A stretch of 64,000 nt of DNA from a virus. Made by a program: the position numbers and the translations under genes. The notes beneath the pieces were generated by a model. The model saw nothing but the letters and a program-made list of their open reading frames with translations. It ran no database searches and was not told where the DNA came from. The stretch covers positions 18,362 to 82,361 of IMG/VR virus record IMGVR_UViG_3300013307_000002, one strand, 5' to 3'. This document shows positions 5,298-58,400 of the stretch, piece by piece (positions within the stretch are counted from its first letter, which is position 1; each line of letters opens with the position of its first letter).

Positions 5298-5309
5298 ACT
5301 ACTGTGACG
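5298..5309 (+). repeat. Dispersed 12-mer ACTACTGTGACG (first of 7 copies)
   Basis: Exact copies at 5298, 7641, 8264, 12219, 17167, 42263 (+) and 57390-57401 (-). Confidence 0.85.
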
Positions 5310-5364
5310 GCGCTGATAATGGTAAACAGGTTTTTAAACAACACCTTAGCAGGGAGTGAAGTAA

Positions 5365-5661
5365 ATGGAAAAAATAACACTGGTTAGAATGTTTAGACAA
5401 TTACTTGTTAGTTCAATCGACAAGTTAGGCGCAGGCGGTATGAAACCGGAGGCTGTTTATCGGGAGTTTATCGCTCGCAAGGCTAACATCCTCGAAAATG
5501 TACACTCTACCACTAACCGCAAAGAGCATTTAGCGTTAATGCTTATTGCAAACAAAGTTTATGTGAACCCCACTAAAAAGGGCAGTAGCGAACTGTTAAA
5601 GAAAGAGTTTGAAACGTGTTTAAACAAACTCCCTTCAGCAGTTAACGGTTTTAAAAAGTAG
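5365..5661 (+). CDS. Early hypothetical protein
   Basis: 98-aa ORF with AGGGAG RBS. Confidence 0.65.
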   Translation: MEKITLVRMFRQLLVSSIDKLGAGGMKPEAVYREFIARKANILENVHSTTNRKEHLALMLIANKVYVNPTKKGSSELLKKEFETCLNKLPSAVNGFKK

Positions 5662-5728
5662 TAAACTGTAGTACAATCCGAGTGTAATAACTCAATCTCA
5701 TAAATAAATACTTTGAAAGGTAAATAAA

Positions 5729-6610
5729 ATGTCTAAAGTTGAAATCGTAAAAGGTCAAGATAACATCCGTAGCGTAATTGGCGCAATCGCTGGTAAAGCT
5801 AAAGCGTACAAAACCGTTATTTCTAGCGCAATCCTCTCTGCTTATCAGCACTACCGTTTACACGGTGATTACACCCTGCTGCAAGAAGCGTTAGACACTG
5901 TTTTCTCTATCAATTACCGTGATTACTCCGCCGTTGCTGATTTTGTTCGCTCTTACACTGAGCTGGAATGTGTTACTCTTAATCAGGGCCGCCGTCAGCG
6001 TGTTGAGATCGCTGGAACAATTGAATCTCAGATGGAACGCCCGGAAAATATGTCCATGAAAGATTGGAACGCTAAGCTGGAGTCTAAGCGTAGTGAAATG
6101 ATCATCCGTAATGGTCGCTTTGACGATTTTGCTACCGGCAAGCCGATCCCAATGAAGAATCCTAATTGGGTACAGGGTATGCCTAAAGATGAAAAGCAGG
6201 AAGGCGTAGTTTACGACGGCGACATCTTTGCATGGCATGATGATGTTAAATGGCTGCGCACTGCTGCCCCTACTGTTGGCGGTGAAAGCACTGAAAACCT
6301 GCGAGAGCTGCCGGTAGAGCAAGCGGTAAACGTCGCTGTTAAACTGGAAGATCGTGTCCTGAAATCCAGCAACAAGCCAGTGTTTGCTGTCCTGATTCAT
6401 ATGATGGAACGTTTTGAAGCTGAAACCGGCGTGTATGCTACTGATGAAGAGATTGAAACTTTCCAGCGCCGTGTAAATGCACTGCTGGAGCGCACCAAAG
6501 CGCGGTCAGAAAGCAAAGCAGAACGTGAAGCTGCTGAAAAGCAGGCTGCTGAAGAAAACAGCGGTGAGCAGGTAGTAACAACAGAGCAGGGCGAACCACT
6601 GCCTTACTAA
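5729..6610 (+). CDS. Early phage protein, probably highly expressed
   Basis: 293 aa; strong host-optimal codon bias (ctg, cgt, gct, aaa); H..HGD.T motif reminiscent of early podophage proteins. Confidence 0.75.
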   Translation: MSKVEIVKGQDNIRSVIGAIAGKAKAYKTVISSAILSAYQHYRLHGDYTLLQEALDTVFSINYRDYSAVADFVRSYTELECVTLNQGRRQRVEIAGTIESQMERPENMSMKDWNAKLESKRSEMIIRNGRFDDFATGKPIPMKNPNWVQGMPKDEKQEGVVYDGDIFAWHDDVKWLRTAAPTVGGESTENLRELPVEQAVNVAVKLEDRVLKSSNKPVFAVLIHMMERFEAETGVYATDEEIETFQRRVNALLERTKARSESKAEREAAEKQAAEENSGEQVVTTEQGEPLPY

Positions 6611-6764
6611 TACCTGATTGTATAAAAGTCAAAGGGCATAATCTAACAGGTTGTGCCCTTTATTGTATGCAATTATAAGATTTATGTTTACCCCGTCTTA
6701 AATGTAACCCTGCTAAGTTATTAGGCGGGGTAGACATACCCATTATTACTAGGAAAAATTATCA

Positions 6765-7163
6765 ATGTCTGAATTTGTACAGATGAAAGATGCTCAAACC
6801 GCTGAAGAGAAAGCAGCATCTATCGCAGCTATTGCAGCCCGTAGTAAAACACGCCACCTAACTAACTTTGGTTTAAGCCGTGGTGCTCTGCGAGTGTCTA
6901 AGCAGTCTGAAAATAGTGATGTCCGTAGCAGCGTAACATCTCGCTTTCGTAAACCTGCGGAACGTGGTACGTTAGAACATCGTGAGACGCGCAAAGTAAC
7001 TAAAGGCCGTCAGAAAGTTAAAGGTAAAACTATTGAGCCTGACGGCTGGTATACTCTTTCTCAGGGCGCTGATTGTGTGATGGGGCGTGATGAAAACAAA
7101 CGCACCAAAGCTACCACGTCACAAGGCGTTTTTGTGAACGGAAAGAATAAAGGGTTTAAATGA
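6765..7163 (+). CDS. Basic hypothetical protein
   Basis: 132 aa, K/R-rich, AGGA RBS. Confidence 0.7.
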   Translation: MSEFVQMKDAQTAEEKAASIAAIAARSKTRHLTNFGLSRGALRVSKQSENSDVRSSVTSRFRKPAERGTLEHRETRKVTKGRQKVKGKTIEPDGWYTLSQGADCVMGRDENKRTKATTSQGVFVNGKNKGFK

Positions 7164-7193
7164 TCAACTGCTGTTTATAAGGTAACTTTACCT

Positions 7194-7222
7194 AGCCACT
7201 CCTCCGGGGGTGGCTTTTTTTT
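7194..7222 (+). terminator. Intrinsic terminator
   Basis: AGCCACTCC-TCCG-GGGGTGGCT stem followed by a T tract. Confidence 0.85.
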
Positions 7223-7264
7223 GCTTAAAGAAAAGTGTAACCTTTTGTATAGGAATGTCTAACA

Positions 7265-7621
7265 ATGAAACAGCAAACAATATCTAAAGAGCGTCGCAAT
7301 GCGATGCATCGTAATTACAAGGCATACATAGGCAGGCTGATTGCCTTGTTCCCTGAAGTGTTTGACCGTGAAAACCCTAAGCCGCTGGCTATCGGTACTG
7401 CTGAAATGCTTCTCAGTCTGCCAGCGTTAAAGATGGATGATGATCTAGTGTCTGACGTGCTGGCTTGTTGGTGTAGCCGCCGGGAGTATATCCGTGCTGC
7501 TTATCAACTGCGGGAACGTTGGAACGTGGTCGGTGTGCCTGTTGGCCCTATCATTGATTGGCAACAGAAACGTTTTGACACTCTTTATCACAAGATGGTC
7601 AAGCGTGGTTTGTATAACTAA
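7265..7621 (+). CDS. ProQ/FinO-domain RNA chaperone-like protein
   Basis: LFPEVF...PKPLAIGT...WCSRREY...RWNVVGVPVGPI aligns by eye with the FinO/ProQ core (FP..F...PLKIGI...Y....Y...R.DL.G...G.). Confidence 0.8.
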   Translation: MKQQTISKERRNAMHRNYKAYIGRLIALFPEVFDRENPKPLAIGTAEMLLSLPALKMDDDLVSDVLACWCSRREYIRAAYQLRERWNVVGVPVGPIIDWQQKRFDTLYHKMVKRGLYN

Positions 7622-7681
7622 GCTATACGGGGCAGGTTTTACTACTGTGACGCCGCGCCCCCTCAGTAAAAGGAATTACTA

Positions 7682-8080
7682 TTGATCTCTACGGCTATAT
7701 TATATGTCGCTCTCACTACTTACCATGAGGCAAGAGGTGAGCCAAAATTGTGTCAGTTATTAGTGGCTGAGACAGTGAGCAACCGTATGAAAAGCCGTGA
7801 TTTAACAGCTAAGCAGGTTGTAAGACAAAAGAATCAATTCTCATGGGTATCTGTCTTAAAGGGCAGAAGTGTTAGACAGGAATATAAAAGAATACAAAGG
7901 ACAGCAGAACCTGCTGATAGGAAAGCACTAGATGATTCAATCAATCTGGCTAATTGGGTTCTCTCTCCTTTGTATGTTTCAGTGAGTGATGCTGAATATT
8001 TCCACGATACTAGCATACGTACCCCTAAACACTTTAAACATAGGATAACGTGTGGAGGTAAGCTAGTTTTTTCTAGGTAA
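7682..8080 (+). CDS. SleB/CwlJ-like cell wall hydrolase (Hydrolase_2)
   Basis: YHEARGE...VAETVSNR...QFSW...YFH motifs. Confidence 0.85.
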   Translation: MISTAILYVALTTYHEARGEPKLCQLLVAETVSNRMKSRDLTAKQVVRQKNQFSWVSVLKGRSVRQEYKRIQRTAEPADRKALDDSINLANWVLSPLYVSVSDAEYFHDTSIRTPKHFKHRITCGGKLVFSR

Positions 8081-8293
8081 ATCAATATGGATAAATGCGT
8101 ATTCTGTAAGCAGCCGATTGGTTTGCTACAAGAAATAATCTTAATCAATTGGCGTAAGCGTAAAGGTGAGCGCCGTATTGTTATTGCTTATAGCTGCACT
8201 GGTTGTGGTGAAGATCGTATAACTGACTTCTGCCAGCCTGAAAGGCCAGTGTTCAAATAAACAACTACTGTGACGTTTTTGTGAGGAATTGCC

Positions 8294-8764
8294 ATGCGTA
8301 AATTATTGTTGTTGGCTGTGTCAGTCTCGTTAGTTTTCACCGCCCCGGCAATGGCTCGTGGCAATTACAATTCATCCTCTGAAAATTACCAGAAATATCA
8401 GCAGGATACTCGTACCCCTGAAGAGATTGAAGAGGACGAGGATTATGAAGATGGTGTTACAGATTGGGAAGATCACACTGTACCATCTCCTCAGCATGAC
8501 TCTCAGAACGCCTCTTTAGCTATGTGCGGTAAACACACTGTCTTTATAAATCAAGATGATAATGTGCTTACAGTGGATGGTTTAAGCTATCAGTTGCTGG
8601 GTTTTGATTATAAGGTAGTTAACTCAGAACCTGTTCTAATTGATCACTATGCTCTTGGCAATAAGATTGCTAACTTAGCAGTATTTCAAAACTCTAAGAA
8701 AATGATCTTCTTTCTTCAGGGTGAAAAACACTCTGTTGAATGTGTTCCATATCAGTGGAACTAA
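8294..8764 (+). CDS. Secreted/periplasmic hypothetical protein
   Basis: Classical signal peptide ending APAMA. Confidence 0.7.
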   Translation: MRKLLLLAVSVSLVFTAPAMARGNYNSSSENYQKYQQDTRTPEEIEEDEDYEDGVTDWEDHTVPSPQHDSQNASLAMCGKHTVFINQDDNVLTVDGLSYQLLGFDYKVVNSEPVLIDHYALGNKIANLAVFQNSKKMIFFLQGEKHSVECVPYQWN

Positions 8765-8864
8765 GAGTATATTTCTCATAATGGACTCAAAGCATGAGCT
8801 TAACGCTAGCGTTGGATCGCTTGCTTCTGCACATGCTTAGTATTCTTTTGTATAGGAGTTCATT

Positions 8865-9053
8865 ATGGCTAAGATTAACGTTAAAACAGCCAAAAAACCT
8901 CTTAATAATAAAGAGGATAAGGCAAAAGATCCAGATGTGAATGATGTTAAACGTAAGTTAGCAGCACTACTTCTGTTTCAACAACTCCACAAAGAGAAGC
9001 CCAAGAAAGGTAGCCTATCTAAAGTGGATTCAAACGACAAACCCTCTGAGTAA
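8865..9053 (+). CDS. Small basic hypothetical protein
   Basis: AGGAG RBS; 62 aa. Confidence 0.55.
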   Translation: MAKINVKTAKKPLNNKEDKAKDPDVNDVKRKLAALLLFQQLHKEKPKKGSLSKVDSNDKPSE

Positions 9054-9084
9054 TCAGGGGGTTTTCTTTTATCAGGGTTAATAT

Positions 9085-9360
9085 ATGTACGAAGATTTCG
9101 GTAGTATATGGGTAACAGCGTTGCTGGTTTACCTTATCGTTTTCTTTATCGATTTTGTGTGGATGAATAAAGTAGACAAAGAGAATCAAGGTGTTATGAC
9201 TAAAGCAGATTACTTTATTAATCTGGTTGAAAGCATGATGTGGCCTATCCTCTTACCACTTGAGATCATCTTCTTTCTTATCATTACAGTGTTCTCACTA
9301 ACTCTTGAGTCTTTGTTCTGGATTCGTCGTAAGGTTAAAACGCTGTGTAAGCAATTCTAG
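9085..9360 (+). CDS. Small membrane protein
   Basis: Two hydrophobic segments with a WP motif. Confidence 0.65.
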   Translation: MYEDFGSIWVTALLVYLIVFFIDFVWMNKVDKENQGVMTKADYFINLVESMMWPILLPLEIIFFLIITVFSLTLESLFWIRRKVKTLCKQF

Positions 9361-9369
9361 GAGGCGTCA

Positions 9370-9588
9370 ATGGATGCCGGGTACATTCTTACTATCTTCT
9401 GGTTTTTCTTTGCCTGCATCACATTTGGCTGCCTTGTAGGTGGTGATACACCTAAAGAGTTCATCAAGCCTACTAAGGGTTTTGTCTTAAAGGCTTGGTT
9501 TATCTCTGTATTCTGGCCTATAGCTTTCCTCTTAGTTACTATCGAATATCTTGCTAAGAAAACTTCTTGGTTAGGTGGTTGGAGATAA
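9370..9588 (+). CDS. Small membrane protein
   Basis: Two hydrophobic segments with an FWP motif; GGAGG RBS. Confidence 0.65.
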   Translation: MDAGYILTIFWFFFACITFGCLVGGDTPKEFIKPTKGFVLKAWFISVFWPIAFLLVTIEYLAKKTSWLGGWR

Positions 9589-9651
9589 AATAGTTGGTAG
9601 TGTTTATATACTATAGCGAATGGATATAGTATATAACCAGTAACTAATTAT

Positions 9652-9727
9652 GATTCTGTAGTTCAGTTGGTAGAACGGTGGACTGTTAATCCATATGTCG
9701 CAGGTTCAAATCCTGCCAGAATCGCCA
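9652..9727 (+). tRNA. tRNA-Asn(GTT)
   Basis: Acceptor GATTCTG/CAGAATC, anticodon loop CTGTTAA, TTCAAAT T-loop, encoded CCA. Confidence 0.95.
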
Positions 9728-9733
9728 AACAAT

Positions 9734-9802
9734 GGGAACCTGAGCACTCTAGGGGACTAGAATATGAGCAATGGTTAATGACACTCGTGATGGTTCCCAC
9801 CA
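9734..9802 (+). ncRNA. CCA-terminated tRNA-like small RNA
   Basis: GGGAACC/GGTTCCC stem plus ACCA end, but no D-, anticodon or T-loop consensus. Confidence 0.55.
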
Positions 9803-9808
9803 TTCAAT

Positions 9809-9895
9809 GTTGGATTACTCAAGCGGCAACGAGAGCAGACTGTAAATCTGTGGCCCATATGGGCTTCGAAGGTTCGAGTCCTTCATCCAACACCA
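9809..9895 (+). tRNA. tRNA-Tyr(GTA)
   Basis: Acceptor GTTGGAT/ATCCAAC, loop CTGTAAA, long variable arm, CCA. Confidence 0.95.
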
Positions 9896-9930
9896 AACAA
9901 TGCACCTATAGTTAATTTTTGAGGTTTACT

Positions 9931-10140
9931 ATGGCAGACTGTAATCGTTGTGGGGATTCTGGGGGAAAGTACTCCCCAAATGAAAACTCTAATAATGGGG
10001 TTTTCTGTTACAACTGTATTGATATTGTGTTAGCTGGGGGCGGAGGAGGTGACTGTAACCCTCGTTACTCTGATAACCCCGGCACAAGGGAAGCTTATAG
10101 AAGACTTATGAGCGCCCCAAACTCAGAGTACAAGTATTAA
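9931..10140 (+). CDS. Small CxxC...CxxC protein inserted in the tRNA cluster
   Basis: ATG at 9931 after GAGG; CNRC and CYNC; flanked by a 17-bp direct repeat. Confidence 0.6.
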   Translation: MADCNRCGDSGGKYSPNENSNNGVFCYNCIDIVLAGGGGGDCNPRYSDNPGTREAYRRLMSAPNSEYKY

Positions 10141-10153
10141 TCAAATATATAAT

Positions 10154-10228
10154 GCACCTATAGTTAAATGGATATAACAGGAGCCTTCTAAGCTCTAGTT
10201 CTAGGTTCGATTCCTAGTGGGTGTGCCA
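10154..10228 (+). tRNA. tRNA-Arg(TCT)
   Basis: Loop CTTCTAA, TTCGATT T-loop, CCA. Confidence 0.95.
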
Positions 10229-10234
10229 TATTTA

Positions 10235-10323
10235 GCCCGGATGATGAAACTGGTAAACATAGGAGACTTAAAATTTCCCGTCTCGTAAGAGGCTTGCGGG
10301 TTCGACCCCCGCTCCGGGCACCA
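10235..10323 (+). tRNA. tRNA-Leu(TAA)
   Basis: Acceptor GCCCGGA/TCCGGGC, loop CTTAAAA, variable arm, CCA. Confidence 0.93.
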
Positions 10324-10356
10324 AACAAAGTAACTTTCAGTTCAGTGAGATAAAGT

Positions 10357-10554
10357 ATGAACAGAGAGCAGTCCTTGCACTGGAGGGGTTGGTTAGAAAA
10401 ACAGCCCATGTTTAATGCGAGAGTTTACTGTGTTAGATGTATGGCACCTTATAAAATAGGTGAATGTCAAGAGACACTAGATTCTCCGGGTTGCTATTGG
10501 AAGGAGAGTAAATGCCCTTCATGTGGGTGTAAACTTTATTACAGCCATCTATAG
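10357..10554 (+). CDS. Small zinc-ribbon protein
   Basis: CVRC...CPSC. Confidence 0.6.
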   Translation: MNREQSLHWRGWLEKQPMFNARVYCVRCMAPYKIGECQETLDSPGCYWKESKCPSCGCKLYYSHL

Positions 10555-10584
10555 TAATACATCTAGCAAGAATAACCAAACAAT

Positions 10585-10659
10585 AGGGCTATCGTATAAT
10601 GGTTATTACATCGGCCTTTGACTCCGATAATCCACGTTCGATTCGTGGTAGCTCTGCCA
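10585..10659 (+). tRNA. tRNA-Gln(TTG)
   Basis: Acceptor AGGGCTA/TAGCTCT, loop CTTTGAC, TTCGATT T-loop, CCA. Confidence 0.9.
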
Positions 10660-10689
10660 ATTTAAATGTGTAAACTAAAGGTGGCTAAT

Positions 10690-12050: not shown

Positions 12051-12241
12051 TTCTGCCGGGGAGCCTTTTGGCTCCTCTTCTTTTTTTTATATGTGAGAGA
12101 TGCTGTAATGATTGAGAATGCTGACGACAACGATATCCTGAATATTGCAATCGTTGCTTGTGTGGTTTGTATTGCTCTGGTTCTGTGTGTAGCCATCCCT
12201 GCTGCATACTTTTTATTTACTACTGTGACGGGTGGTGCGTA

Positions 12242-12544
12242 ATGTCAAAACCAATTCAACTTTATGCGGTTCATGAAAAGCAGGATGGCGTGCAGTGCAG
12301 TCATATCAAAACTGCGTACAATATCAATGCCCTCTTCCGTGCGCTGAATCTTCAGCCTGATATGAATGACGTAAACTCTCAGCGGTGTGTTGAAGCCATT
12401 AAAAGTAATGGCAAAATGTTTGTTTATCTCTCTCCTGAAATTAAGAAGTTTCATTTTTCCCGTGAAGCTCTTATGGAAGAGTTGATGTATTATCGTCAAC
12501 AAAAACAGCTATTGTCTGCTGTTGAGTCATTAGATAATACCTAA
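12242..12544 (+). CDS. Hypothetical protein
   Basis: Likely start at MSKPIQ after GGTGG. Confidence 0.6.
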   Translation: MSKPIQLYAVHEKQDGVQCSHIKTAYNINALFRALNLQPDMNDVNSQRCVEAIKSNGKMFVYLSPEIKKFHFSREALMEELMYYRQQKQLLSAVESLDNT

Positions 12545-17160: not shown

Positions 17161-17172
17161 GAGGTAACTACT

Positions 17173-17640
17173 GTGACGGATTTTGTTTTGGAAGCATCTA
17201 AATTAGCGGCTCAGTTTCATCAGGGTCAAAAGTATGGCAACCTCGATTACTTCGAGGGTCATATTGATTCAGTCGCAACTCAAGCTGATGTAATTGCATA
17301 TGGTTTGAAGTTTAGTAGTGAAGAAATCCGCCATGTGGTTGCCGCTGCGTATCTTCATGATATTCTTGAGGATACTTTCTGTGAAGCTAAAACTCTCCTT
17401 GAGAAAGGTATACCGCATGTTGTTGTAACTGCTGTCGGTGTTCTGACTAAAGGGTGCGAGTCTAAGAGTCAGTATTTAGCGGCTATCTCTTGTAGTAGAA
17501 TAGCTACTGTCGTTAAATTGGCTGACAGCATGGTGAACTTAAGGGCTTGTATTGCTGATGGCAAATTTGTCAAAGCTCTTAAGTATTCAGACAACATCAA
17601 CTTTCTTACGACTGTTATTAGTCGTTGGAGTGGTCAATGA
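17173..17640 (+). CDS. HD-domain hydrolase (SpoT/Mesh1-like small alarmone hydrolase)
   Basis: H.GQKYG..Y..HI...AAAYLHDILEDT...VKLAD..NL motifs. Confidence 0.85.
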   Translation: MTDFVLEASKLAAQFHQGQKYGNLDYFEGHIDSVATQADVIAYGLKFSSEEIRHVVAAAYLHDILEDTFCEAKTLLEKGIPHVVVTAVGVLTKGCESKSQYLAAISCSRIATVVKLADSMVNLRACIADGKFVKALKYSDNINFLTTVISRWSGQ

Positions 17641-17987: not shown

Positions 17988-18422
17988 ATGTTCGGACTGA
18001 AAAAGAAACTGCAATCCCTGATCTCTTCCATCAAAAAGATCGAAAATAAATCTGCATTCCAAGCTGCTGTAGCTTCTGCTGTTTGGGTAGCTGCTGCTGA
18101 TGGCTCTATCGACGATAACGAACTGGATCTGCTGGAAAAACTGATCAAAGGCAACGATAAGCTGTCTAACTTCTCCAGCGAAATCGATTCTGAAATGGGC
18201 AAATGGGTTGCTGCCTTCACTGGCGGTGGTAAGCGTTCTGCAATGCTTCAGGTAAACGCTCTGCTGGATTCCATCAAAACTGACCGTGCTGCTGCTGAGC
18301 AGGTACTGGTTACTGTCATTGATGTGGCAGATACTGATAATAACATCGACGAAAATGAAGCGGCTGTCGTTCGTCAGGTTGCTTCCCGCCTCGGCCTGAA
18401 TGCTTCTAATTACGGCCTGTAA
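17988..18422 (+). CDS. terB: TerB-family tellurite-resistance protein
   Basis: VAAADGSIDDNE...VADTDNNIDENE duplicated metal-binding motif. Confidence 0.9.
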   Translation: MFGLKKKLQSLISSIKKIENKSAFQAAVASAVWVAAADGSIDDNELDLLEKLIKGNDKLSNFSSEIDSEMGKWVAAFTGGGKRSAMLQVNALLDSIKTDRAAAEQVLVTVIDVADTDNNIDENEAAVVRQVASRLGLNASNYGL

Positions 18423-18565
18423 TAAATGCTGATGGTCTTTCTTCAACTGTGGTGGATAGTGGCAGTGTTCGTAATAATACTGCTTTATACGTTCTAAGTT
18501 GATTACTTATAAGCCTCTACGGGGGCTTATTATTGATTAATCTTTGTGACAATAAGAGGTTCAAT

Positions 18566-19447
18566 ATGATTCGTCTTAAAATTAATAATGTCGATGTAGC
18601 CTTAAATCAGGTTTCATTCTCAGATGGAGCTAAGAGCTTATCACTTCGTGGTGCCTTACCTACCTACTGTAATAACGCCACCATTGAAGCAACACCCGAT
18701 GGCAGCCTTCCAGAGCTTTTCTTTGAAATTGCTCAATGTGTAGATGTTCTTCGTCAGAAGAATAATCGCATTGAAATTAAACTGATCATGCCTTACATTC
18801 CATATGCAAGACAAGATCGTCCAATGGTGCGCAACGATTCCTTCTCTCTCAGAGTGTTCGCTGATTTACTCAACAGCTTAAACCTCGATAAAGTTATTGT
18901 TGTCGATGCCCATAGCAATGTAAGCACCGCGTTAATTCGTAACTGTGTGCATATCGAGCAGCATCAGCTCATTTCATATTCTCCGATTCTGGTTATCTTC
19001 CCTAAAGATTGCGTTCTGGTTGCTCCAGACGAAGGATCTCTGAAGAAGATTAATAAGGTTGCTGATGTTGTTAAGCCTGCTGGCGTTGTTGTAATGTCTA
19101 AAGAGCGTGACGTTTCGACAGGACAAATTATTGGATCTTCGATTGTGTCTAGCCCTTTCCAATCGTTAGAAGGTCGAACCTGTACGATTGTTGATGATAT
19201 CTGCGATGGCGGAGCAACATTCATCAGTATCGCACAAAAGCTTAAAGAAGCTGGAGTTGAGCGTGTGTATCTCTGGGTTACTCATGGCATATTCAGTAAA
19301 GGTCTGACACCTTTGCTAGAGCAGGGTATTGATGGTGTCTACACCACAAACAGCCTGAACCAGTCTAAGCAACTTGACAAAGATTGGCGTGGTAAATTCT
19401 GCTCTTTCAACCTCTCTCCTATGATTTCCGCAAGAAGTTTAATGTGA
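18566..19447 (+). CDS. PRPP-synthetase-like protein (probable NARP1 ADPR-PP synthetase, Adps)
   Basis: FSDG, MPYIPYARQDR, VDAHS, APDEG, IVDDICDGGATF, VTHGIFS motifs; adjacent to a NAMPT-like gene. Confidence 0.9.
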   Translation: MIRLKINNVDVALNQVSFSDGAKSLSLRGALPTYCNNATIEATPDGSLPELFFEIAQCVDVLRQKNNRIEIKLIMPYIPYARQDRPMVRNDSFSLRVFADLLNSLNLDKVIVVDAHSNVSTALIRNCVHIEQHQLISYSPILVIFPKDCVLVAPDEGSLKKINKVADVVKPAGVVVMSKERDVSTGQIIGSSIVSSPFQSLEGRTCTIVDDICDGGATFISIAQKLKEAGVERVYLWVTHGIFSKGLTPLLEQGIDGVYTTNSLNQSKQLDKDWRGKFCSFNLSPMISARSLM

Positions 19448-19474: not shown

Positions 19475-21109
19475 ATGGATCTGAATCCGATTTTTGCAAT
19501 TGATGGCTATAAAACTTCACATCGTGACCAATACCCATCAGGCACTGAGAAGGTGTACGGCAACTTTACCCCTCGCAGTAATAAGCACTTTGACTCTCCA
19601 TTCTTTGCTAAACGCAAAGGTGGTAGCCCTCTGATTTGGGCTGGCTCTCAGGCGCTGGTTCTTCAGTGGTTGTGCAAAAACTTCAATCAGTATTTCTTCA
19701 ATGCTGATAAAACTCGCACGGTCAATGAGTTCAAATCTTTTATGGACTCATATCTCGGCAAAAATGCTGTTTCTGTAGATGGCATTGCTGCACTTCATGA
19801 CCTCGGATATCTGCCTCTGGAGATTAAATCTCTCCCTGAAGGTAGTTTCGTTGAAATGAAAACGCCAGTGCTTACCATCACAAATACTCTGCCTGAATTC
19901 TTCTGGCTGGTTAACTATCTGGAAACCCTGTTCAGCGCTGAGCTTTGGCCTGTAGCAACTGCTGCCACGATCGGTTTCAACTACCGCTGTATTGGCGAGT
20001 ATTGGGCAGCCAAGACTTGTGACAATTCAGAGCACATTGGTTGGCAGTTCCATGACTTCTCTGCCCGTGGTGACATGGGTATGTGGGCTAACACTCTGGT
20101 TGGTATGGGGCATCTGTTCTCCTTCACCGGCACTGATTCAGTGGCTGCTCTGCGTCGTCTGCAAATGCAGTATGAGATTGATTGTCTGGATGGTGGTTCT
20201 ATCCCAGCGACAGAGCATAGCGTGATGTGTATGGGGACTAAGGACGGTGAACTTGAAACGTTCCGCCGTCTTGTTCAAGATATCTATCCATCAGGCCCAA
20301 TGGCAGCAGTGGGTGATACTTGGGATTGGTGGAAAGTCCTTCTTGAGTATGCTTCCCAACTGAAAGAGATTATTTTGTCCCGCGAAGGCAAAGTAGTTTT
20401 CCGTCCAGACTCAGGTGACCCGGTAGATATTATCTGCGGTGAGCAGTTCATCGATCTGGATAGTTGTACTCATCTTGGCGAAGCACTTACTACTATGCTG
20501 CGTGCTAGAGCTGAAGGTCTTGTTTGCCGTTTTAATGGCGAATATTTCCGTCTAGTTGACGGTGGCTTTGTTCAAGTTCCTGAACACATCATCAAAGGCT
20601 CTATTCAGTTGCTGTGGGAAATCTTTGGTGGCACGATCAATAAGAAGGGCTTCAAAGTTCTGAACCCTAAAGTTGGTCTGATTTATGGTGATAGCATCAC
20701 TATGGAACGTGCTGAAGAGATTTTCGAACGCTTAGCCAATAAGAGCTTTGCGTCGTCCAACGTAGTGCTGGGTATTGGTTCTTATACCTATCAGTATGTT
20801 ACTCGTGACACGTTTGGTTTTGCCATGAAAGCTACTTATGGCGTTGTTAATGGCGAACCTCGTGAAATCTTTAAAGACCCTGCTACCGATGATGGGACTA
20901 AGAAGTCTCTGAAAGGTCTGCTATGCCACACGGTTAATGATCGTGGTGAATGGTCAGTTAAAGATCAAGTAACCCCTGAAGAAGAGGCTAAGAGCGAGCT
21001 GACCACTATCTTTAAAGATGGTAAGGTCACTGGTCACACTTCCCTTCAGGAAATTCGTAACCGCGTATCTTATGCGGTGTCTAAATTCGTGGCAGAACGT
21101 TCTGTCTAA
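19475..21109 (+). CDS. Nicotinamide phosphoribosyltransferase-like protein (probable NARP1 Namat)
   Basis: DGYKTSH, HDFSARG, PATEHSVM, RPDSGDP, LIYGDSI, TRDTFGFAMKAT motifs. Confidence 0.92.
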   Translation: MDLNPIFAIDGYKTSHRDQYPSGTEKVYGNFTPRSNKHFDSPFFAKRKGGSPLIWAGSQALVLQWLCKNFNQYFFNADKTRTVNEFKSFMDSYLGKNAVSVDGIAALHDLGYLPLEIKSLPEGSFVEMKTPVLTITNTLPEFFWLVNYLETLFSAELWPVATAATIGFNYRCIGEYWAAKTCDNSEHIGWQFHDFSARGDMGMWANTLVGMGHLFSFTGTDSVAALRRLQMQYEIDCLDGGSIPATEHSVMCMGTKDGELETFRRLVQDIYPSGPMAAVGDTWDWWKVLLEYASQLKEIILSREGKVVFRPDSGDPVDIICGEQFIDLDSCTHLGEALTTMLRARAEGLVCRFNGEYFRLVDGGFVQVPEHIIKGSIQLLWEIFGGTINKKGFKVLNPKVGLIYGDSITMERAEEIFERLANKSFASSNVVLGIGSYTYQYVTRDTFGFAMKATYGVVNGEPREIFKDPATDDGTKKSLKGLLCHTVNDRGEWSVKDQVTPEEEAKSELTTIFKDGKVTGHTSLQEIRNRVSYAVSKFVAERSV

Positions 21110-21133: not shown

Positions 21134-22063
21134 ATGGGTAATCCATTCTGGTTGTATGTTGCACTAGCTGTAACTTTGGTAGTGTCTATCTTTGTTGATT
21201 TTATTGGTCACAAGGAAGGCAAAGAACAAACTTTGGCCTCAAGCGTTGTATGGTCATTGTTCTGGATTGCAGCAGCCGTAACACTCGGTGGTTATATCTA
21301 CCTTGTTTATGGGTCAACTGCTGCCAGTGAATACTTCTCAGGCTATGCAATGGAGAAAGCACTCTCTATTGATAACTTGATGGTGTTTGTTGCTATCTTC
21401 TCGTTCTTCGGTATCAAAGACAGTTATCGAAAGCATAAGATCCTGCTATGGGGTATTGCTGGAGCACTTGTGTTCCGTGCAATATTTGTAGCTTTAGGTA
21501 CTACGTTGTTCCATCTACATTGGAGCGTCGAAGTTATCTTTGGCTTACTGGTTATCTTTTCAGCTTACGCTTTGGTCAAAGGTGGAGATGATGAAGAAGA
21601 GGAAAACTATAATGAAAAACCGTACATCAGGCTGGTTCGCAAGTTCTACCCTGTGGACTCAGACTCTAACAGTAGCCGCTTTTTTACTGTTAATAACGGT
21701 GTTCGTTATGTTACGCCTATGTTTCTTTGTCTGCTCACTGTTGAGCTTAGCGACATTATGTTTTCGTTCGACTCCGTGCCAGCAGTTATCGGAATCACGA
21801 AAGAGCCACCTCTGGTATATGCGGCGATGATTATGGCCATTCTTGGCCTGAGAGCGCTGTTCTTCGTACTAGGCTGGATGATGAAGCATCTGACACGTCT
21901 CGACGCTTTCGTAGCACTTATTCTAGTGTTTGTTGGTGTTAAACTTGTTGGACACCCTTTTGGGTTGGAAATCGGGGCAACGCAAAGTCTTTATGTGGTG
22001 CTCGGTTTGCTGTTGGCTGGCGTACTTGTTTCTTTGGTTCTCCCTAAGAAAGAGAACGATTAA
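21134..22063 (+). CDS. terC: TerC/Alx-family integral membrane protein
   Basis: EKALSIDNL, ELSDIMFSFDSVPA, AILGLRALFF signatures. Confidence 0.93.
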   Translation: MGNPFWLYVALAVTLVVSIFVDFIGHKEGKEQTLASSVVWSLFWIAAAVTLGGYIYLVYGSTAASEYFSGYAMEKALSIDNLMVFVAIFSFFGIKDSYRKHKILLWGIAGALVFRAIFVALGTTLFHLHWSVEVIFGLLVIFSAYALVKGGDDEEEENYNEKPYIRLVRKFYPVDSDSNSSRFFTVNNGVRYVTPMFLCLLTVELSDIMFSFDSVPAVIGITKEPPLVYAAMIMAILGLRALFFVLGWMMKHLTRLDAFVALILVFVGVKLVGHPFGLEIGATQSLYVVLGLLLAGVLVSLVLPKKEND

Positions 22064-27208: not shown

Positions 27209-27814
27209 ATGAGCTTGCTTCGTGACTATAATCACTATTACCAGCAATCTTGGGTAGGGGTGAAAGAGGGTAATCTTCTTCTCCCTATCTATGTTGAGCA
27301 GGTTATTGACAGTAGTGATTATGACAGAGATGATTACTCGGAAGAACACAGAGCGCGTCTTGAAATACACGGTTATCGCTACACTAAGAATAGTCGTGGT
27401 CGCGTGTCTGGTTCTCGTTTTTCTATCTCTGTTCTTGATGAAAGTCTTGTTCTGGAATCTCCAGACGTAGGTTACATCTCAAACGGTCATGATGTTCGTT
27501 GGGCGGTTATCCGTCCAGTTCGTCAGCGCATGAAAGGCATGGTAAGCAATAAGGTTGTTGGTACAAGTTTGGGTCGTAGCAATGAAAATGCTTCGATTAT
27601 CTACAACCTGTTTAATCCTGAATTTGAAGGTATGATTAATCGCTATATGTTTGTAGCTCCGTCTGACAATCACATCTATTATAAAGGTGCGAAAGTTGGG
27701 GTAATTACAGAAACTGGTGTTAATATTATCTCTCGGTTCTCTTACCTGCTTCCTATGCTTACCGCGTGTGAGCAGTATCGTGATTTACCTGTAACTCCTG
27801 TAGAGGCTCTATGA
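27209..27814 (+). CDS. Hypothetical protein of the amidoligase cluster
   Basis: 201-aa ORF coupled to the amidoligase. Confidence 0.7.
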   Translation: MSLLRDYNHYYQQSWVGVKEGNLLLPIYVEQVIDSSDYDRDDYSEEHRARLEIHGYRYTKNSRGRVSGSRFSISVLDESLVLESPDVGYISNGHDVRWAVIRPVRQRMKGMVSNKVVGTSLGRSNENASIIYNLFNPEFEGMINRYMFVAPSDNHIYYKGAKVGVITETGVNIISRFSYLLPMLTACEQYRDLPVTPVEAL

Positions 27815-31410: not shown

Positions 31411-32664
31411 ATGACTCGTATTGCTATCCTTCCTTATGGCCCATCTGACTCTTGTACTGCACTGCGTGATGCTCTTATTGCTCAGTTTGAAGGTGACAAC
31501 ACTACTTCTGTTCGTAAACTTCGTAGTGATAATAGCAGCACTTTTCGTGGTCGTGCTGGTGATATCATCATCAACTATGGCAATCGTTCAGCCCCTGAAG
31601 AACGTTTCGGTAATGCCTTTGTCTTAAACAGTCAGGGTGCTCTGAGAAATGCAGCTAACAAGCTGAATGCCTTGAATACGATGCGTAATAACAACGTGTC
31701 AACTGTCCCATTCACTGTAAACTCAGAAGAAGCTCGTATTTGGGCGGCATCTGGTTCAGTTGTATATGCTCGTACAACTTTGAATGGTCACTCTGGTGAA
31801 GGTATTGTTGTTGTCAATGCTAATAACATTGATGCTATGCCGGAAGCACCTCTGTACACCAAGGGTATTACTGGTCGTCGTCGTGAATGGCGTGTTCATG
31901 TTTTCGATGGTGTAATCACTCATGTTCAGGTTAAACGTCGTCGTAACGGTTATGCTGAAGATCCTAACTATCGTGATGATGTACGTAACCATCAAACTGG
32001 TTGGATTTATGCAACTGAAAACATCAACCCATCTCAGGCAGTTCTGCGTAATGCAGTGAATGCTGTTGCTTGTATGGGTCTTGACTTCGGTGCTGTTGAT
32101 ATCATCAGTCTTGGTGATGAAGCTTGGGTTCTGGAGGTTAATACTGCTCCGGGTCTTCAGGCAGAAACTACTATGACAGCTTTTGTCAATGCTCTAACTG
32201 CGAAAATTCATAACATTCGCTTCCGGGGTGCGCCTCAAATGGTTATCACTCCAGCGTTCCAACTGGAACCAGAGGTACAGGAAGAAGATGCTTTTACTCC
32301 AGAAGAAATTGCTGCTGAAGAAGATGATCTTGCTGGTAGTTATGACCCAGAAGCCGCAGCCTTCTTTAATGCGGGAGCTTTTGGCACTGATCGTCCGGCA
32401 GCCATGTCAGCTCCTCAAGTACAAATGACTGCTGAAGGTACTCTCCCTGAAGCAGAAACTCGCAATGTTCCAGATGGCTATTATCTTGCAAATATTCAGC
32501 GAATGGACGATCGTTCAACTGCAATGAATGTAATTGTGTGGGTTTCTAGTGGTCTTGTATATCGACACGGTTGGAACTCTCCGATTCGTCTGAGTCAAGT
32601 TCGTGGCCTTCGTGCCATCACCTCTGTAGTGTCTGGTAACGAAACTGTAGCTGTTTCTGTATAA
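31411..32664 (+). CDS. ATP-grasp ligase
   Basis: ANKL, GHSGEGI, EWRVHV, VRNH, LDFGAVDI...VLEVNTAPG motifs. Confidence 0.9.
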   Translation: MTRIAILPYGPSDSCTALRDALIAQFEGDNTTSVRKLRSDNSSTFRGRAGDIIINYGNRSAPEERFGNAFVLNSQGALRNAANKLNALNTMRNNNVSTVPFTVNSEEARIWAASGSVVYARTTLNGHSGEGIVVVNANNIDAMPEAPLYTKGITGRRREWRVHVFDGVITHVQVKRRRNGYAEDPNYRDDVRNHQTGWIYATENINPSQAVLRNAVNAVACMGLDFGAVDIISLGDEAWVLEVNTAPGLQAETTMTAFVNALTAKIHNIRFRGAPQMVITPAFQLEPEVQEEDAFTPEEIAAEEDDLAGSYDPEAAAFFNAGAFGTDRPAAMSAPQVQMTAEGTLPEAETRNVPDGYYLANIQRMDDRSTAMNVIVWVSSGLVYRHGWNSPIRLSQVRGLRAITSVVSGNETVAVSV

Positions 32665-42187: not shown

Positions 42188-42502
42188 ATGAAAAATCTTC
42201 CACAGCTTATTAATCTTTGTCGTAAAGCTCTTATGCCGCCTGCTTCTCCAGTAGAAGAGAAGACTACTGTGACGCCTAAAAAGTTTTCTTTATCAGAAGC
42301 TCACGCTATTCTATGTATTGCTGAGGAAGAGCGTAGACGTTCTTGTAATCAGTTACGGTTAGGGCAGGCTATCTGGAACGTAGCGAGAGATAAAAATCCA
42401 GATCTTATGTCAGCGCATTGTGCTACTGATAAAGATTTCTTCTATTTTAGAGATCCTCATAAGGCTTTAGAATACTTCAACACTTATTATGTAGAGCATT
42501 AA
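42188..42502 (+). CDS. Hypothetical protein
   Basis: RLGQAIWN...DFFY motif of small phage proteins. Confidence 0.65.
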   Translation: MKNLPQLINLCRKALMPPASPVEEKTTVTPKKFSLSEAHAILCIAEEERRRSCNQLRLGQAIWNVARDKNPDLMSAHCATDKDFFYFRDPHKALEYFNTYYVEH

Positions 42503-51873: not shown

Positions 51874-52070
51874 TGTTTTTAGTCTTTGCCGGTCAAGGAT
51901 CATTTGACTATAATAGGGCAGGTGGTTGGAACGACTTCATTGAAGAGTTTCATCAAGAAGAGGTTGCTTTAGCTTTTGGTGAAAAACTTAAAAGTCAGTA
52001 TGCATGGGTTCAAGTTGTAGATTCAGATGTTAGAAAGATTATTTGGGAATATTAATGACATGGAGGTCAT

Positions 52071-52718: not shown

Positions 52719-52888
52719 GTCTTTCGGTTTTTACACTGTTTATTTTGTTAAGTATGTCCAGAAGTATTGGGTAATCAATACCGCTGAAGATGTTCTTGAA
52801 GCTGTACCAGATTCCTTACCGGAGGCTTTGGCGGTTGCCGAAGCTTTCAATAATAGCCTTGCTAAATTTATTATGGAAAACGATGCAA

Positions 52889-54284: not shown

Positions 54285-54448
54285 CATATTACTCAAGGAT
54301 GATATATGAAAGTAGATTACAGCCGCTATGAAGAGATGGAAACTCGTCAATCAACTCGTGATGTTCGTATTAAAAATCACCTGATGGATAAGCGTGGTAA
54401 TAAGTCTCGTACATACAAGACCTCCCATCGTGTTGAAAAACGTCGAGA

Positions 54449-54889
54449 TTGGGAGGAATAAGATTGGCTAGAAAAACTTCGGGGAGCAAGTCTCCCCTCA
54501 CAAGATGTTCTGGCAGATGGACTGAAGCTAGATATAATAGTTTTGTTAAGTCTGCAATAAGAAGTATGAGTGGTAGATGGCCTGTTAAATATGATGCTAT
54601 GAAGAAAGCTCAAGTAGGTATCATGATTAATGAAAAGACAGGACGTAAAGCAATGCACTATAAATGTGCTTGTTGTGGTTTAGACTTCCCCGCTAAAGAA
54701 GTTCAAGTTGACCACATCGAACCTCTCGTTCCTACTGATGGAGCTTCTCAGAACGATTGGAATATCATTATTGGCAGAGCTTTAGTAGAGGTTGACGGCT
54801 TTCAGGTTCTTTGCAAACCTTGCCATAAAGTAAAAACTAGTGAGGAAAACAATGAGCGTAGAAACAGTCGAAAGCACACAGACTCCTGA
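54449..54889 (+). CDS. HNH endonuclease
   Basis: CACC...VDH...LCKPCH..KT. Confidence 0.85.
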   Translation: MGGIRLARKTSGSKSPLTRCSGRWTEARYNSFVKSAIRSMSGRWPVKYDAMKKAQVGIMINEKTGRKAMHYKCACCGLDFPAKEVQVDHIEPLVPTDGASQNDWNIIIGRALVEVDGFQVLCKPCHKVKTSEENNERRNSRKHTDS

Positions 54890-55088
54890 AATGACTTTTC
54901 TTTATACTAATTATAAAGGTGAGACAGATTTGAGAACTGTAGTAACACCAAGCATCACTTACGGTGTTTCAGAGTATCATAATGATGGTGAACCTTGTTG
55001 GTTACTGGTAGCGTTTGACACTAAGAAAGGTGATTGGAGATCTTTTGAAGTGTCAAGCATCCGAAGTTTTGAACAAATCCCATTTTAA
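54852..55088 (+). CDS. Stand-alone WYL-domain protein
   Basis: F.YTNYKGE...R.V....I.YG...WLL.AFD..K...RSF. Confidence 0.8.
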   Translation: MSVETVESTQTPEMTFLYTNYKGETDLRTVVTPSITYGVSEYHNDGEPCWLLVAFDTKKGDWRSFEVSSIRSFEQIPF

Positions 55089-55387
55089 GGAAATGTTATG
55101 AAAAATCTGATGGATAGAAAAAGAGAGGGAATGAAAGCTCTTAAAAAGTCATGGGACAAACATGAACAAGAGCAAGTAAATAAACTTCTTGATCAAATGG
55201 AGTTTTGTGCTAGCAATATTAAAGCTTTGTGTGAAAAAATTAAAAGTTAAGGTATCAGATGAAGATAATATCTATAGTTGTTTATTGCCCACAATGTCAC
55301 TCATCTAATATTCAATCTAGTACTTACACAGATTATTGTGGTGACTGTAATTATATACTTCAAACCTATTAAAAGTTAAATAAAAAT

Positions 55388-55420
55388 AAACCCCCTTGGA
55401 TTTCTCCTTGGGGGTTTTCT
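55388..55420. terminator. Bidirectional terminator at convergence of the two arms
   Basis: AAACCCCC...GGGGGTTTT stem with A/T tracts on both sides. Confidence 0.75.
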
Positions 55421-55424
55421 TGTT

Positions 55425-58400
55425 TTAGTCTCTCTTCAGATTAAGCCTTCTGGCTCTCACCTTGTATCGACTTCTCACTGGCTTGCCTGAATTAGCATCC
55501 AGCAGGGCAGCCCTAGCCTTAGCATTATCCAGTGAAACCTTCTTAGTCAACTCACCTGAATCCACTTTCTTAGCAAATTCTTCCCTCTGAGCATTAGTCA
55601 TTAACTTAACCTCTTCAGGATTCTTACCAAGAACTGTTCTAACAATCTGAGACTTAAGACCATTAGCATGTGTGCTGTTACTCTTAGAGAGATTAGCAAC
55701 ATCTTCACTTGATAACCACAGAGCAGGTTGGTCAGGATACGTATCTTTATAAGATTTAGACTTCTGTAGCATTCTCACATATTGACGCAGAGAATGACCA
55801 GCAGGAGAGTTATCCCCATAATATACTTTAGACAGGACGTTAGCAGCATCAACTACATCTTCTAAACTATCACCGTCTCTCAGAGCCTTTTCAGCCCTAT
55901 CCACAATCTCACCACTCAAAGCATCTTGTGCTTCTTTCACATCACCTGCATTAGATTTATTGATAGTCTTCTTCAGAGAATCAATCTCTTTATGCAGAGC
56001 TTCCAGTTCTGGATTTGCTTCAGATAATGGGCCAGTAGAACCTGACAGCTCCATCTCTTTCTCAGCAGGAGTAGCATCTTTCTGAAGTTTCTTAGAGTAA
56101 CGTTCAGCAGCATTACGAGCCTTAGTGTAAGCTTCTTCCATTCTACCTTGAGCCAGAGGCTGACGAGTCAGGTTGAAGTTCCTATCCATATAAGCATCGA
56201 TAAAGTCTTGAACATCTTTAGGGTCAGCATCAGTCTTAAACTCTTTCTTCATGTCAGAACTAATCTTGTCCATCTGAACAGATAAGTCATGCAAGTCTTG
56301 AATTTGTTTAGCAGTCTTGATAGCTTCAGATTTCTTCTTCTCAGCAGCTTCAGCTTCAGCAGCCTGTTTCTCTGCATTACCTTCCAACTCCTGAGCTTTA
56401 CGCTTAGCCTCTTCCGCTTCTTTTTGCTTCCCTAGTCTCTTGTTAATAACTTCTTCTTGATTAAAGATCTTTTTCCACAGAGAATTAGATTCGGATGGTG
56501 TTAATGGTTTACCAGTTTTCTCAGCAGCTCTGAACGCCTGATTAATCATAGGCATAACAGCTTTCTGAACATCAGGATGCATATCACCAACTGAATTGAA
56601 ATATCCATCTCTCTGGTCATTCCATTTAACAGCTTCAACAGTAGGAGTGTTATCTACCGTACCATCTGACTTAGGAACCAAAGACTTCTCATAAGCTTTC
56701 TCAGCCCTAACCTTAATATCGTTAATACCTAAGACTTTAGAGTGAGTTAAACCTTTAGCACGAATAGCATCACTAATAAAACCCCAAGGGATATTAAAGT
56801 CTTTACTCCAGCTCTGAAGTTCATTCATGTTGATTTCGTGTTGCTTATCTTCACGAATTCTTCTAGCTCTATTGACTTGTTCTACAGAATGATTTAAAGC
56901 TTCAACATTATTAGCAACATCTTCCCTTCTCATTTGTTTCAAGAACTCTTTATCATTTTTGTTATTATGATTAATTTGATCTTTAACTTGCTGAGTAGTG
57001 AATTGATCTTTAACAGTGTTAAGTTTACGATCTTCAATAGCTTGTACAGCCTTAGACATAGCATCCATATCCTCTCTAGGAGTCTTTGTAGGAGCTTCTG
57101 GCTCTGGGGTAGGCTCAGCTACTGGTTCTTCTGTAGGACGCTGCTCAGGACGTCTCACGAGCGTCTGGTCGATAGTAGGAGTAGGCTCAGGCACTGGCTC
57201 TGGAGTAGGCTCTTCCACAACAGGTTCTTCAGCTTGTTTAGGGGCTTCAGGACGTCTTGCAAGAATCTGGTCTGGCTCAGGCTTAGTCTCAACTACAGGC
57301 TGCTCTTCTACAGGAGCTTCCTCTGGTCTAGAAGGTCTACGTACTAACGCTTGGTCAGGTTCAGGAGTAACAACAGGTTGTGGTTCTTCCGTCACAGTAG
57401 TTTCTTCTACAACAGGTTCCTCTACCTTTCTTGGAGCAGGTCTACGAACAAGAGCTTGGTCTGGCTGTGGTGCAGGAGTTGCTTCAGGGGTTGGTGCTAC
57501 ATCAGGTTGATCATACTGAAGTTCAGGAGTGTTCTCTTCAATACTATTAGAGTTTTCCATATCAGCACGAGCATCATCTACAGCAGCTCTAGTCCTTTGA
57601 GCAGCAAAATCACCACGAGCAAGATCTCTTACTTGGTTAAGGTTATTAGCTTGTTCCCTTCTCAGAGCACGTTTTGCATGACCTGACTTAAGAGCATCTA
57701 CAGTTGTACCTACAACCTTATCAATAAAGCCGCCAGAACTTACTGTAGCGTTACGACCAGCAGTAGGGTTAGTTCTACCATTCCTAAAGTTAGGGTGCAT
57801 ATTGTCAAGCTGATTATAAACAGCATTGTACTCAGCAGCATGTGCAATAGGATTAAACCCTTCAGTAAAACCTTTAGGGGCAGTATAATTCTCATTGAAA
57901 TGAGTCTTAAAGTAATCAGGAGTTCTGTCAAAAGAATCTTGAACCTGCTTAGCTTTATTCAGAAGTGATTGCTGCCTTGCTGGGTCAGTAGAACCTTTAT
58001 CACGTTTCATCATAGATACGTAATCATTTAAGTTCTTCTGGAATCTATCTACTCCTGCCAACTCTGCATTGATAGTTGAGTTATAACTGTTAGTGTCTCC
58101 CTCTGAAGCATATCTGCTCTTCAAGTCTTTCACAAAATCATCTGTATTAAGTTTAGCTGTATTTAAGCTATCCTCAACGTTCTTAACAATAGCAGAACCT
58201 TTATTTTCAATATCAGATTTAGTAACAGCCATTCTACCAGTATCACCATCTTTAGTAACAAATGGTAATCTTGCGTTGGTAGCTGAATCTCTACCTGCAT
58301 CCATCGATTTAAACACATCATCCTGAGTCTTACCAAAAGCAGCCTGAGCAGAAGCATCGTTGTTAAGACGACTATCTAACAGAGGAACACCTTGGTCAGC

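Follow-up and report, generated by a model that had tools for sequence, protein, structure and literature searches.

Single-strand interruptions at a short, defined sequence have been described in several Pseudomonas phages. In Pseudomonas putida phage tf, 14 interruptions were reported, all on the top strand and all within 5'-TACT/RTGMC-3'; 11 of the 14 fall at TACTGTGAC, they are present in more than 90% of the molecules, the sites are densest in the early part of the genome, and they were recognized through sequencing signal drops, ligase-sensitive fragments on denaturing gels and primer extension (Glukhov et al. 2012, PMC3517423). All 14 are annotated in the tf GenBank record, where one of them, sci1, lies at TACTATGAC; this is the main form of the site in LUZ24-like phages, for which an excess of read ends was reported at GTACTATGAC (Essoh et al. 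2013, 2015; PMC3634792, PMC4482731). For Pseudomonas phage Rembedalsseter, drops in Nanopore strand coverage were reported at WACTRTGAC, a nick-associated motif of this phage and about 60 related phages, and the survey of the 250 closest genomes in that report describes no enrichment of the motif outside the Rembedalsseter cluster (Dougherty et al. 2025, PMC11780129). Nicks have further been described at 5'-CGACxxxxxCCTA/CTCCGG-3' in phiKMV-like phages and in T5 and BF23, and the T5 genes sciA and sciB were mapped genetically (cited in PMC3517423); neither the Discussion of PMC3517423 nor PMC11780129 assigns a function to nicks in any of these phages. Here, we analyzed a 64,000-nt stretch of viral DNA (the window), which comprises bases 18362-82361 of the 82,361-bp IMG/VR record IMGVR_UViG_3300013307_000002 (G000) and in which a 12-mer, ACTACTGTGACG, recurs in a fixed relation to the direction of transcription.

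The core of this 12-mer, TACTGTGAC, is a mapped tf nick site letter for letter, and the likeness goes beyond the nine published letters. In tf, the longer forms are TACTGTGACG, in 9 copies, and CTACTGTGACG, in 6, with every copy on the same strand, so that 11 of the 12 letters are common to the window word and the commonest extended tf form, CTACTGTGACG. The sites of LUZ24 extend to GTACTATGACG (6 copies), and since the tf and LUZ24 sites extend alike, the trailing G of the window word is also shared. We propose, at a probability of roughly 0.78, that ACTACTGTGACG is the recognition sequence of a programmed DNA nicking of the tf/LUZ24-like type, with nicks predicted at its copies, because its core is a mapped nick site, the word is under selection, and the phage that carries it shares ancestry with those in which the nicks were mapped.

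The window holds seven exact copies of ACTACTGTGACG, six on the + strand and one on the − strand, each at the position and on the strand that an initial annotation, made from the letters alone, had given. None of 100 dinucleotide-preserving shuffles of the window contained even one copy, in keeping with the earlier estimate of far fewer than one per 64 kb by chance. The whole 82,361-bp record contains the same seven and none beyond them, the backwards-read control gave 0/0, and ACTACTGTGACG ranks first by repeat count among both the 11-mers and the 12-mers of the genome. The 50 bases on each side of the copies have nothing in common, which makes the word a 12-mer with sharp limits at both ends rather than a piece of a longer repeat. 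Missed or degenerate copies had been suspected, and two near-copies were indeed found, at window position 32167 (+) and at genome position 2627 (+). With the degenerate core TACTRTGMC, the window gave 8 matches against 1.98 expected, a count of at least 8 being reached in 0 of 100 shuffles; this core fits all eight listed sites, seven of which read TACTGTGAC and one TACTATGAC.

The conservation of the word was then assessed in two close IMG/VR relatives, G001 (88 kb) and G002 (90 kb), which are about 75% identical to G000 in nucleotide sequence over roughly two thirds of the genome. G001 carries five exact 12-mers and the variant ACTACTATGACG, and G002 carries eight exact 12-mers and three copies with one mismatch. 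For the sites at 8264 and 17167, the alignments lead to an exact copy in G001 as well as in G002; across the three genomes, 12 of 12 motif columns but 21 of 80 flank columns are identical at 8264, and 12 of 12 versus 15 of 80 at 17167. By their offsets from flanking alignments, copies also stand at the equivalent intergenic place of the 7641 site in G001 (ACTACTATGACG) and G002, at the equivalent place of the 12219 site in G001, and, for the 5298 site, at a similar offset in G002. The initial annotation had pointed to orthologous positions in relatives as the place to look, and the motif is present at these five matched places, where it is identical in 11-12 of 12 letters, versus 10-21 of 80 (three-way) or 23 of 80 (two-way) in the ungapped 40-nt flanks. 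No copy was found at the aligned place for the sites at 42263 (in G001), 32167 (in G001 or G002) and genome position 2627. Judged from these alignments, the word is under selection. An IMG/VR search with the protein adjoining the 8264 site found no further relatives, a 19-nt pattern around the 17167 site was found in G002 only, and a metagenome scan for relatives returned the G001 contig only.

The window is a phage genome in which a long rightward early/middle arm faces a leftward late arm, and the early/middle arm includes NAMPT, PRPP synthetase, TerB/TerC-like genes, an amidoligase/GATase/ATP-grasp module, a primase/helicase and a split DNA polymerase. The DNA polymerase of G000 is 73-74% and its primase/helicase 78-79% identical to those of the phiEco32-type (Kuravirus) coliphages, and G000 has accessory genes in common with Salmonella phage 7-11 that Kuravirus is without; the window phage is an uncultured relative of phiEco32 and 7-11. 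Its open reading frames (ORFs) also match both tf and LUZ24 by BLASTP, in the virion and packaging genes (terminase, 1e-109; portal; scaffold; capsid; three tail/virion proteins), in replication and nuclease genes (primase/helicase, 5e-179; DNA polymerase; an exonuclease subunit; a 5'-3' exonuclease) and in the genes of two amidoligases, a GATase, an ATP-grasp ligase and GGCT. On the basis of these protein matches, the window phage, tf and LUZ24 are of common ancestry, and the motif match is one between related phages.

The spread of the word across the lineage was followed by counting forward/reverse matches of TACTRTGMC per genome. The counts were 7/1 in G000, 1/5 in G001, 10/2 in G002, 1/12 in Salmonella phage 7-11 and likewise 1/12 in PKM.Lu.22.1, 0/8 in Vibrio phage SJSY21, 14/0 in tf, 9/0 in LUZ24, 1/2 in each of five Kuravirus records, 0/1 in GAP52, 0/1 in Vibrio phage phivp506 and 0/0 in Aeromonas phage 4_4572. 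Among its 13 core sites, 7-11 has the exact 12-mer 11 times; in 7-11, the AC prefix and the G suffix each stand on 12 of the 13 sites, in PKM.Lu.22.1 on 12 and 11 of its 13, respectively, and because prefix and suffix stand on nearly all sites, these two phages use the same 12-mer as the window. SJSY21 has a GG-prefixed form, and a one-letter variant, TACGGTGAC (T to G), occurs 1/8 in the Cronobacter phage GAP52 and 6/2 in Aeromonas phage 4_4572. Three sites each were found in phiEco32 and ECBP2, all with a G behind them; those of ECBP2 include the exact 12-mer and its R=A form. By this comparison, the three sites of these two phages are not noise, and the word runs in dialects through the whole lineage, with few copies in Kuravirus. 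Two other words considered for Kuravirus were ruled out: TACTTTAGACAT, as an alternative motif, proved to be the antisense of a repeated MSKV gene start, and TTTCCCCGTG, as a dispersed signal, has four of its five exact copies within the terminal repeats and lies mainly in or next to them. In phiEco32, TTTCCCCGTG stands on the − strand at positions 65, 92, 77070, 77426 and 77453, and it may be a packaging or end-recognition word of that phage.

The orientation of the sites follows the genes. The initial annotation had placed the word always on the sense strand and had noted that it flips with the direction of transcription; the former is true of all seven exact copies and of the 32167 variant, the exception being the near-copy at genome position 2627 (ACTACTGTGATG, + strand, outside the window), which is antisense to late genes, and the latter is a conserved trait of the lineage. 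With the local coding strand called from ORFs of at least 100 aa, 72 of 77 sites in eight low-GC genomes lie on the sense strand, late-arm copies included; this way of calling is unreliable for the GC-rich tf and LUZ24, for which the record annotation was used, and there the tf late-arm sites 33846 and 37112 and the LUZ24 site 29861 are antisense to annotated genes. The rule of the lineage is therefore the sense strand and not one physical strand, unlike in tf. The minus-strand copy at 57390 is not noise, since it matches the 12-mer exactly and has counterparts in homologous late genes. In G001, phiEco32 and ECBP2, a copy coding for (T/S)TVT lies roughly halfway along the homologous large late protein, in a similar acidic/proline-rich stretch, and the large late proteins of the latter two are 27-29% identical to that of G000. 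The late protein of Aeromonas phage 4_4572 has a copy in the variant spelling, with a BLAST match only to the protein of G001 (25.5%). Sense copies also occur elsewhere in late arms, within a 258-aa gene of 7-11 and PKM.Lu.22.1 and in GAP52 and G002, with position 27711 of 7-11 as the one exception.

The placement of the sites is likewise uneven. The arm that bears the six +-strand copies of the window is about 51 kb long, and five of these copies lie no more than about 14 kb from the first early promoter; in 7-11, 7 of the 12 reverse-strand sites fall in the last 14 kb. Read against the ORFs, five of the seven exact copies stand either between genes or at a start codon. The RTG of the motif itself serves as start codon at 17167, at sci1, sci4 and sci11 of tf and, by coordinates, at gp089 of 7-11 and at the 7-11 gene starting at 83744. 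Sense copies within ORFs of the low-GC genomes are read in just two frames, those free of a stop; the remaining frame contains TGA.

The individual sites of the window are as follows. The first exact copy (5298..5309, +; predicted nick 5303/5304) is intergenic, 56 nt before the ATG at 5365, and lies, as the initial annotation had seen, within a long hairpin; this hairpin is terminator-like, with a T run after it, and folds with z −2.4, 1 of 200 shuffles folding equally well. The second (7641..7652, +; predicted nick 7646/7647) stands between the ORFs 7265-7621 and 7682-8080, and the GGGGC/GCCCC arms noted around it are present, but their fold is no better than that of shuffles (z −0.35). Because 5298 is the only one of the seven sites whose local fold is better than shuffles, the hairpin is not part of the element. 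Three further copies stand just before or at start codons, as had been described: 8264..8275 (+; predicted nick 8269/8270) 18 nt before the ATG at 8294; 12219..12230 (+; predicted nick 12224/12225) 11 nt before the ATG at 12242 and immediately after a terminator-like hairpin at 12185-12209; and 17167..17178 (+; predicted nick 17172/17173), which follows a terminator-like hairpin and whose own GTG at 17173 starts the ORF 17173-17640, with a weak HD match. Two copies lie inside ORFs, again as first read, namely 42263..42274 (+; predicted nick 42268/42269) in the ORF 42188-42502, at codon 26 of 104 aa, and 57390..57401 (−; predicted nick 57396/57395) in the 1318-aa late gene 55425-59381 (−), at codon 661; both read ACT ACT GTG ACG, that is, TTVT. 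The label "ejection gene" once given to the 1318-aa gene found no support, as the gene belongs to PHROG 14629, of unknown function. The variant ACTACTATGACA, with the core TACTATGAC, stands in sense orientation at 32167..32178 (+) inside the ATP-grasp ligase gene 31411-32664, and is a probable additional site, its core fitting TACTRTGMC. In the public runs, one contig of run X14 ends at 12232, 2 nt beyond the site 12219-12230, and continues into Illumina adapter, and another such end lies at 7168, away from any site; as isolated records, they do not count as evidence of nicking.

Several other features of the genome were recorded alongside. Three strong sigma70-like promoters stand at 3462 (TTGACA-17-TATAAT) and, as 11/12 matches, at 4107 and 4519; these promoters (3462-4546) head a stretch of low GC (0.34 at 2001-4000) and few ORFs that precedes the first early genes, and the true genome ends are probably near window positions 3462-4546. 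The 123-bp "terminal repeat" of the record is located among the late genes and resembles an assembly overlap. Five tRNA genes are at 9652-10659, and an accessory block without a Kuravirus counterpart consists of a TerB-like gene (17988-18422), PRPP synthetase (18533-19447), NAMPT (19475-21109) and a TerC-family membrane protein (21134-22063). Two other repeated words of the genome are CTTGAGGGTTA, with four copies, all on the + strand, and the palindrome AATGATATCATT, with two copies per strand.

The sites of the window thus compare with those of tf in the identical nine-letter core, a strong strand bias, a density in the early arm, a position both inside and between genes, the RTG start-codon sites and the common core genes. 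They differ in that AC forms two additional fixed left-hand letters in this lineage, and in that the late-arm copy here is on the opposite physical strand (sense), whereas the two late-arm nicks of tf are on the top strand (antisense); moreover, there are 7 to 8 sites in 82 kb here versus 14 in 46 kb in tf, and the tf nicks were mapped physically, whereas those of the present phage are predicted from its sequence. With Rembedalsseter and the LUZ24-like phages, the core, the one-strand bias and the clustering toward one part of the genome are shared, but those are ~45-kb Pseudomonas podophages, and the present carriers are enterobacterial and Vibrio phages of 76-111 kb. The phiKMV-like phages, T5 and BF23 resemble the present case in having programmed, sequence-associated one-strand breaks in packaged DNA, but their recognition sequences and phage lineages are unrelated. 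In the literature that was searched, which left most subscription journals and supplements aside and so may have missed an earlier mention, a TACTRTGAC-type motif was found for ~45-kb Pseudomonas phages only, and a term search of two transcription papers on 7-11 turned up no mention of the motif or of nicks.

If the tf cut (TACT/GTGAC) is taken as the model, virion DNA of this phage would be interrupted on the motif-bearing strand, by a ligatable break between T6 and G7, and recognition in this lineage would need, in addition to the core, AC on its left and G on its right. The breaks would fall on the non-template (sense) strand in the early and late arms alike, most densely over the initial 14 kb of the early arm. 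More weakly, non-template breaks might let the incoming genome be transcribed, or their 3'-OH ends might be extended co-directionally with transcription. That nicks exist in this phage, at which bond they lie and what function they may have are all points that we infer.

Several observations weigh against this interpretation. The nicks are predicted from the letters, and the 14 public runs listed as containing the phage are available as assembled contigs, which are blind to strand breaks. The one-physical-strand rule of the tf-type sites failed in G000, with 7 sites on the + and 1 on the − strand. In G000, G001 and G002 together, 12 of 26 sites lie outside same-strand ORFs of at least 60 aa, versus about 12% of positions (2 of 13 sites in 7-11 and 1 of 8 in SJSY21), so that some link to gene boundaries is possible; the word could in principle serve primarily another role, to which nicking would be secondary. 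In addition, no protein family follows the motif: when all ORFs of at least 40 aa from 12 genomes were compared by BLASTP and grouped into single-linkage clusters, no family was present in all motif-rich genomes yet absent from the two Kuravirus genomes. The T7-endonuclease-I-like nuclease, found in tf, LUZ24, 7-11, PKM.Lu.22.1, GAP52 and 4_4572, is absent from G000, G001, G002 and SJSY21 (profile E <= 10, tblastn E <= 1), and tf_47 (PHROG 221, a metallo-phosphoesterase) occurs only in tf, LUZ24 and SJSY21 and is absent from G000, G001, G002 and 7-11.

The search for the nicking enzyme was extended beyond these two candidates. The best non-shadow families absent from Kuravirus were PRPP synthetase and NAMPT (7/10 each) and a 169-aa protein and the T7-endonuclease-I-like nuclease (6/10 each), but Kuravirus keeps three flanked sites and is therefore no longer meaningful as a negative set. 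A family of 56-82 aa (7-11 gp077, tf_35) is missing from G000, LUZ24 and SJSY21. The HNH endonuclease gene at 2252-2740 (−) has relatives in LUZ24 (gp30) and G001, is absent from G002 and tf, and is probably a mobile, homing-type gene; apart from this HNH gene, Pfam scans of 20 clade-specific ORFs showed no nuclease. Profile-profile comparison of the families found only in tf/LUZ24 with those found only in the G000 clade gave no match of at least 50% probability in 7/47 families (511 pairs). Since no family tracks the motif and even Kuravirus keeps sites, the nickase is likelier to be a core protein or a fast-evolving protein than an accessory gene.

Other roles of the word have to be set against the predicted nick site. 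The word might be a promoter element that marks early/middle units, or might mark them by being bound by a transcription or sigma factor of the phage; its placement between genes and at start codons (5 of 7 exact copies), the excess of sites outside ORFs in the three close genomes and the orientation with transcription would fit this, and relatives are reported to encode sigma factors of their own (PMC8948821). Nevertheless, we consider this explanation unlikely. Copies lie deep in genes, as at codon 26 of 104 aa and codon 661 of 1318 aa, 11 of the 13 sites in 7-11 are inside same-strand ORFs of at least 60 aa by an ORF heuristic, and the copy at 17167 overlaps a start codon and so leaves no room for a leader. 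The promoters mapped in 7-11 are given as sigma70-type or GTAAtg-16-aCTA, and an intergenic MEME analysis in the same source reported nothing else; by inspection, the 12-mer is unlike both this consensus and the tAATGTAtA of phiEco32 (consensi from PMC8948821). These consensi stand upstream of middle/late genes, whereas 6 of 7 copies of the word are in the early/middle arm and 2 of 7 inside ORFs; no sigma70-like hexamers were found beside the sites, and nicks have been mapped at this very core in tf.

A role of the word at the RNA level, be it in RNase processing, in translation signaling or as the target of a chaperone, would explain the sense-strand rule, with its 72 of 77 sites in the eight low-GC relatives and its late-arm copies, and would suit the several copies that come just before start codons or supply them. 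We regard it as just as improbable, for the tf sites 33846 and 37112 and the LUZ24 site 29861 are antisense to annotated genes and yet are nick sites, the copies have no common fold (1 of 7 contexts folding better than shuffles), the Rfam matches were tRNAs only, and three studies physically place the event in virion DNA.

Even less probable is a target of DNA modification, such as 7-deazaguanine introduced by a DpdA-type transglycosylase, with the breaks being secondary. In its favor, 7-11 encodes DpdA and is reported to contain about 50 dADG per million nucleotides (PMC6884629), which by our arithmetic amounts to about 9 per 89.9-kb duplex genome, near its 13 motif sites, although this may be coincidence; PKM.Lu.22.1 also has DpdA. 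However, six-frame searches (E <= 0.01) found DpdA absent from G000, G001, G002, GAP52, SJSY21, 4_4572, tf, LUZ24, phiEco32 and ECBP2, and modification therefore cannot explain the word in the window; for Rembedalsseter, breaks but no modification motif were reported (PMC11780129). Chance, or functionless mobile or duplicated remnants, has nothing but the small copy number to commend it and is excluded, given that no shuffle held even one copy, that the unrelated flanks argue against duplication, and that the exact word is kept at matched places in ~75%-identical genomes and within 27-29%-identical proteins. Of the two broad options in the initial annotation, a signal at the RNA level or a polar one in DNA, the latter is thus retained, while the processing site, the chaperone target, the antitermination loading site and the promoter element are not.

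Beyond the predicted nicking in this phage, a wider view can be sketched, which we hold to be doubtful in its full extent. Nicking at (AC)TAC[T/G]RTGAC(G) might be ancestral to the phiEco32/7-11/LUZ24 super-lineage (Kuravirus, Grimontviridae, Lahexavirus, Bruynoghevirus and Krylovvirus), have its nickase among the ~20 shared core proteins or a small partner of these, and play a role linked to the direction of transcription. Candidates would then include the terminase, replication proteins and small, fast-evolving partners of core proteins. The breaks of the enterobacterial branch would lie on the non-template strand of both arms, one late-gene site having outlasted the divergence of its protein to 27-29% identity, and they might serve as breaks that RNA polymerase can pass or as 3'-OH ends that start co-directional DNA synthesis.

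To our knowledge, site-specific nicks in virion DNA have been recognized since T5, and we know of no established function for them nor, outside T5 genetics, of any enzyme. The word is best read as a tf-type predicted nick site in a new host lineage, in an extended 12-letter form and with a sense-strand rule. If this is true, the same nick system would be present in the cultured and tractable enterobacterial phages 7-11 and PKM.Lu.22.1 and, with three sites, in the phiEco32-type phages, and the lineage would offer natural variants of specificity, with T to G in GAP52 and the Aeromonas phage and a GG prefix in the Vibrio phage. The spread over the lineage would thereby provide a comparative handle on the nickase and on the function of the nicks, and the sense-strand placement in both arms would be a testable rule that tf does not show.

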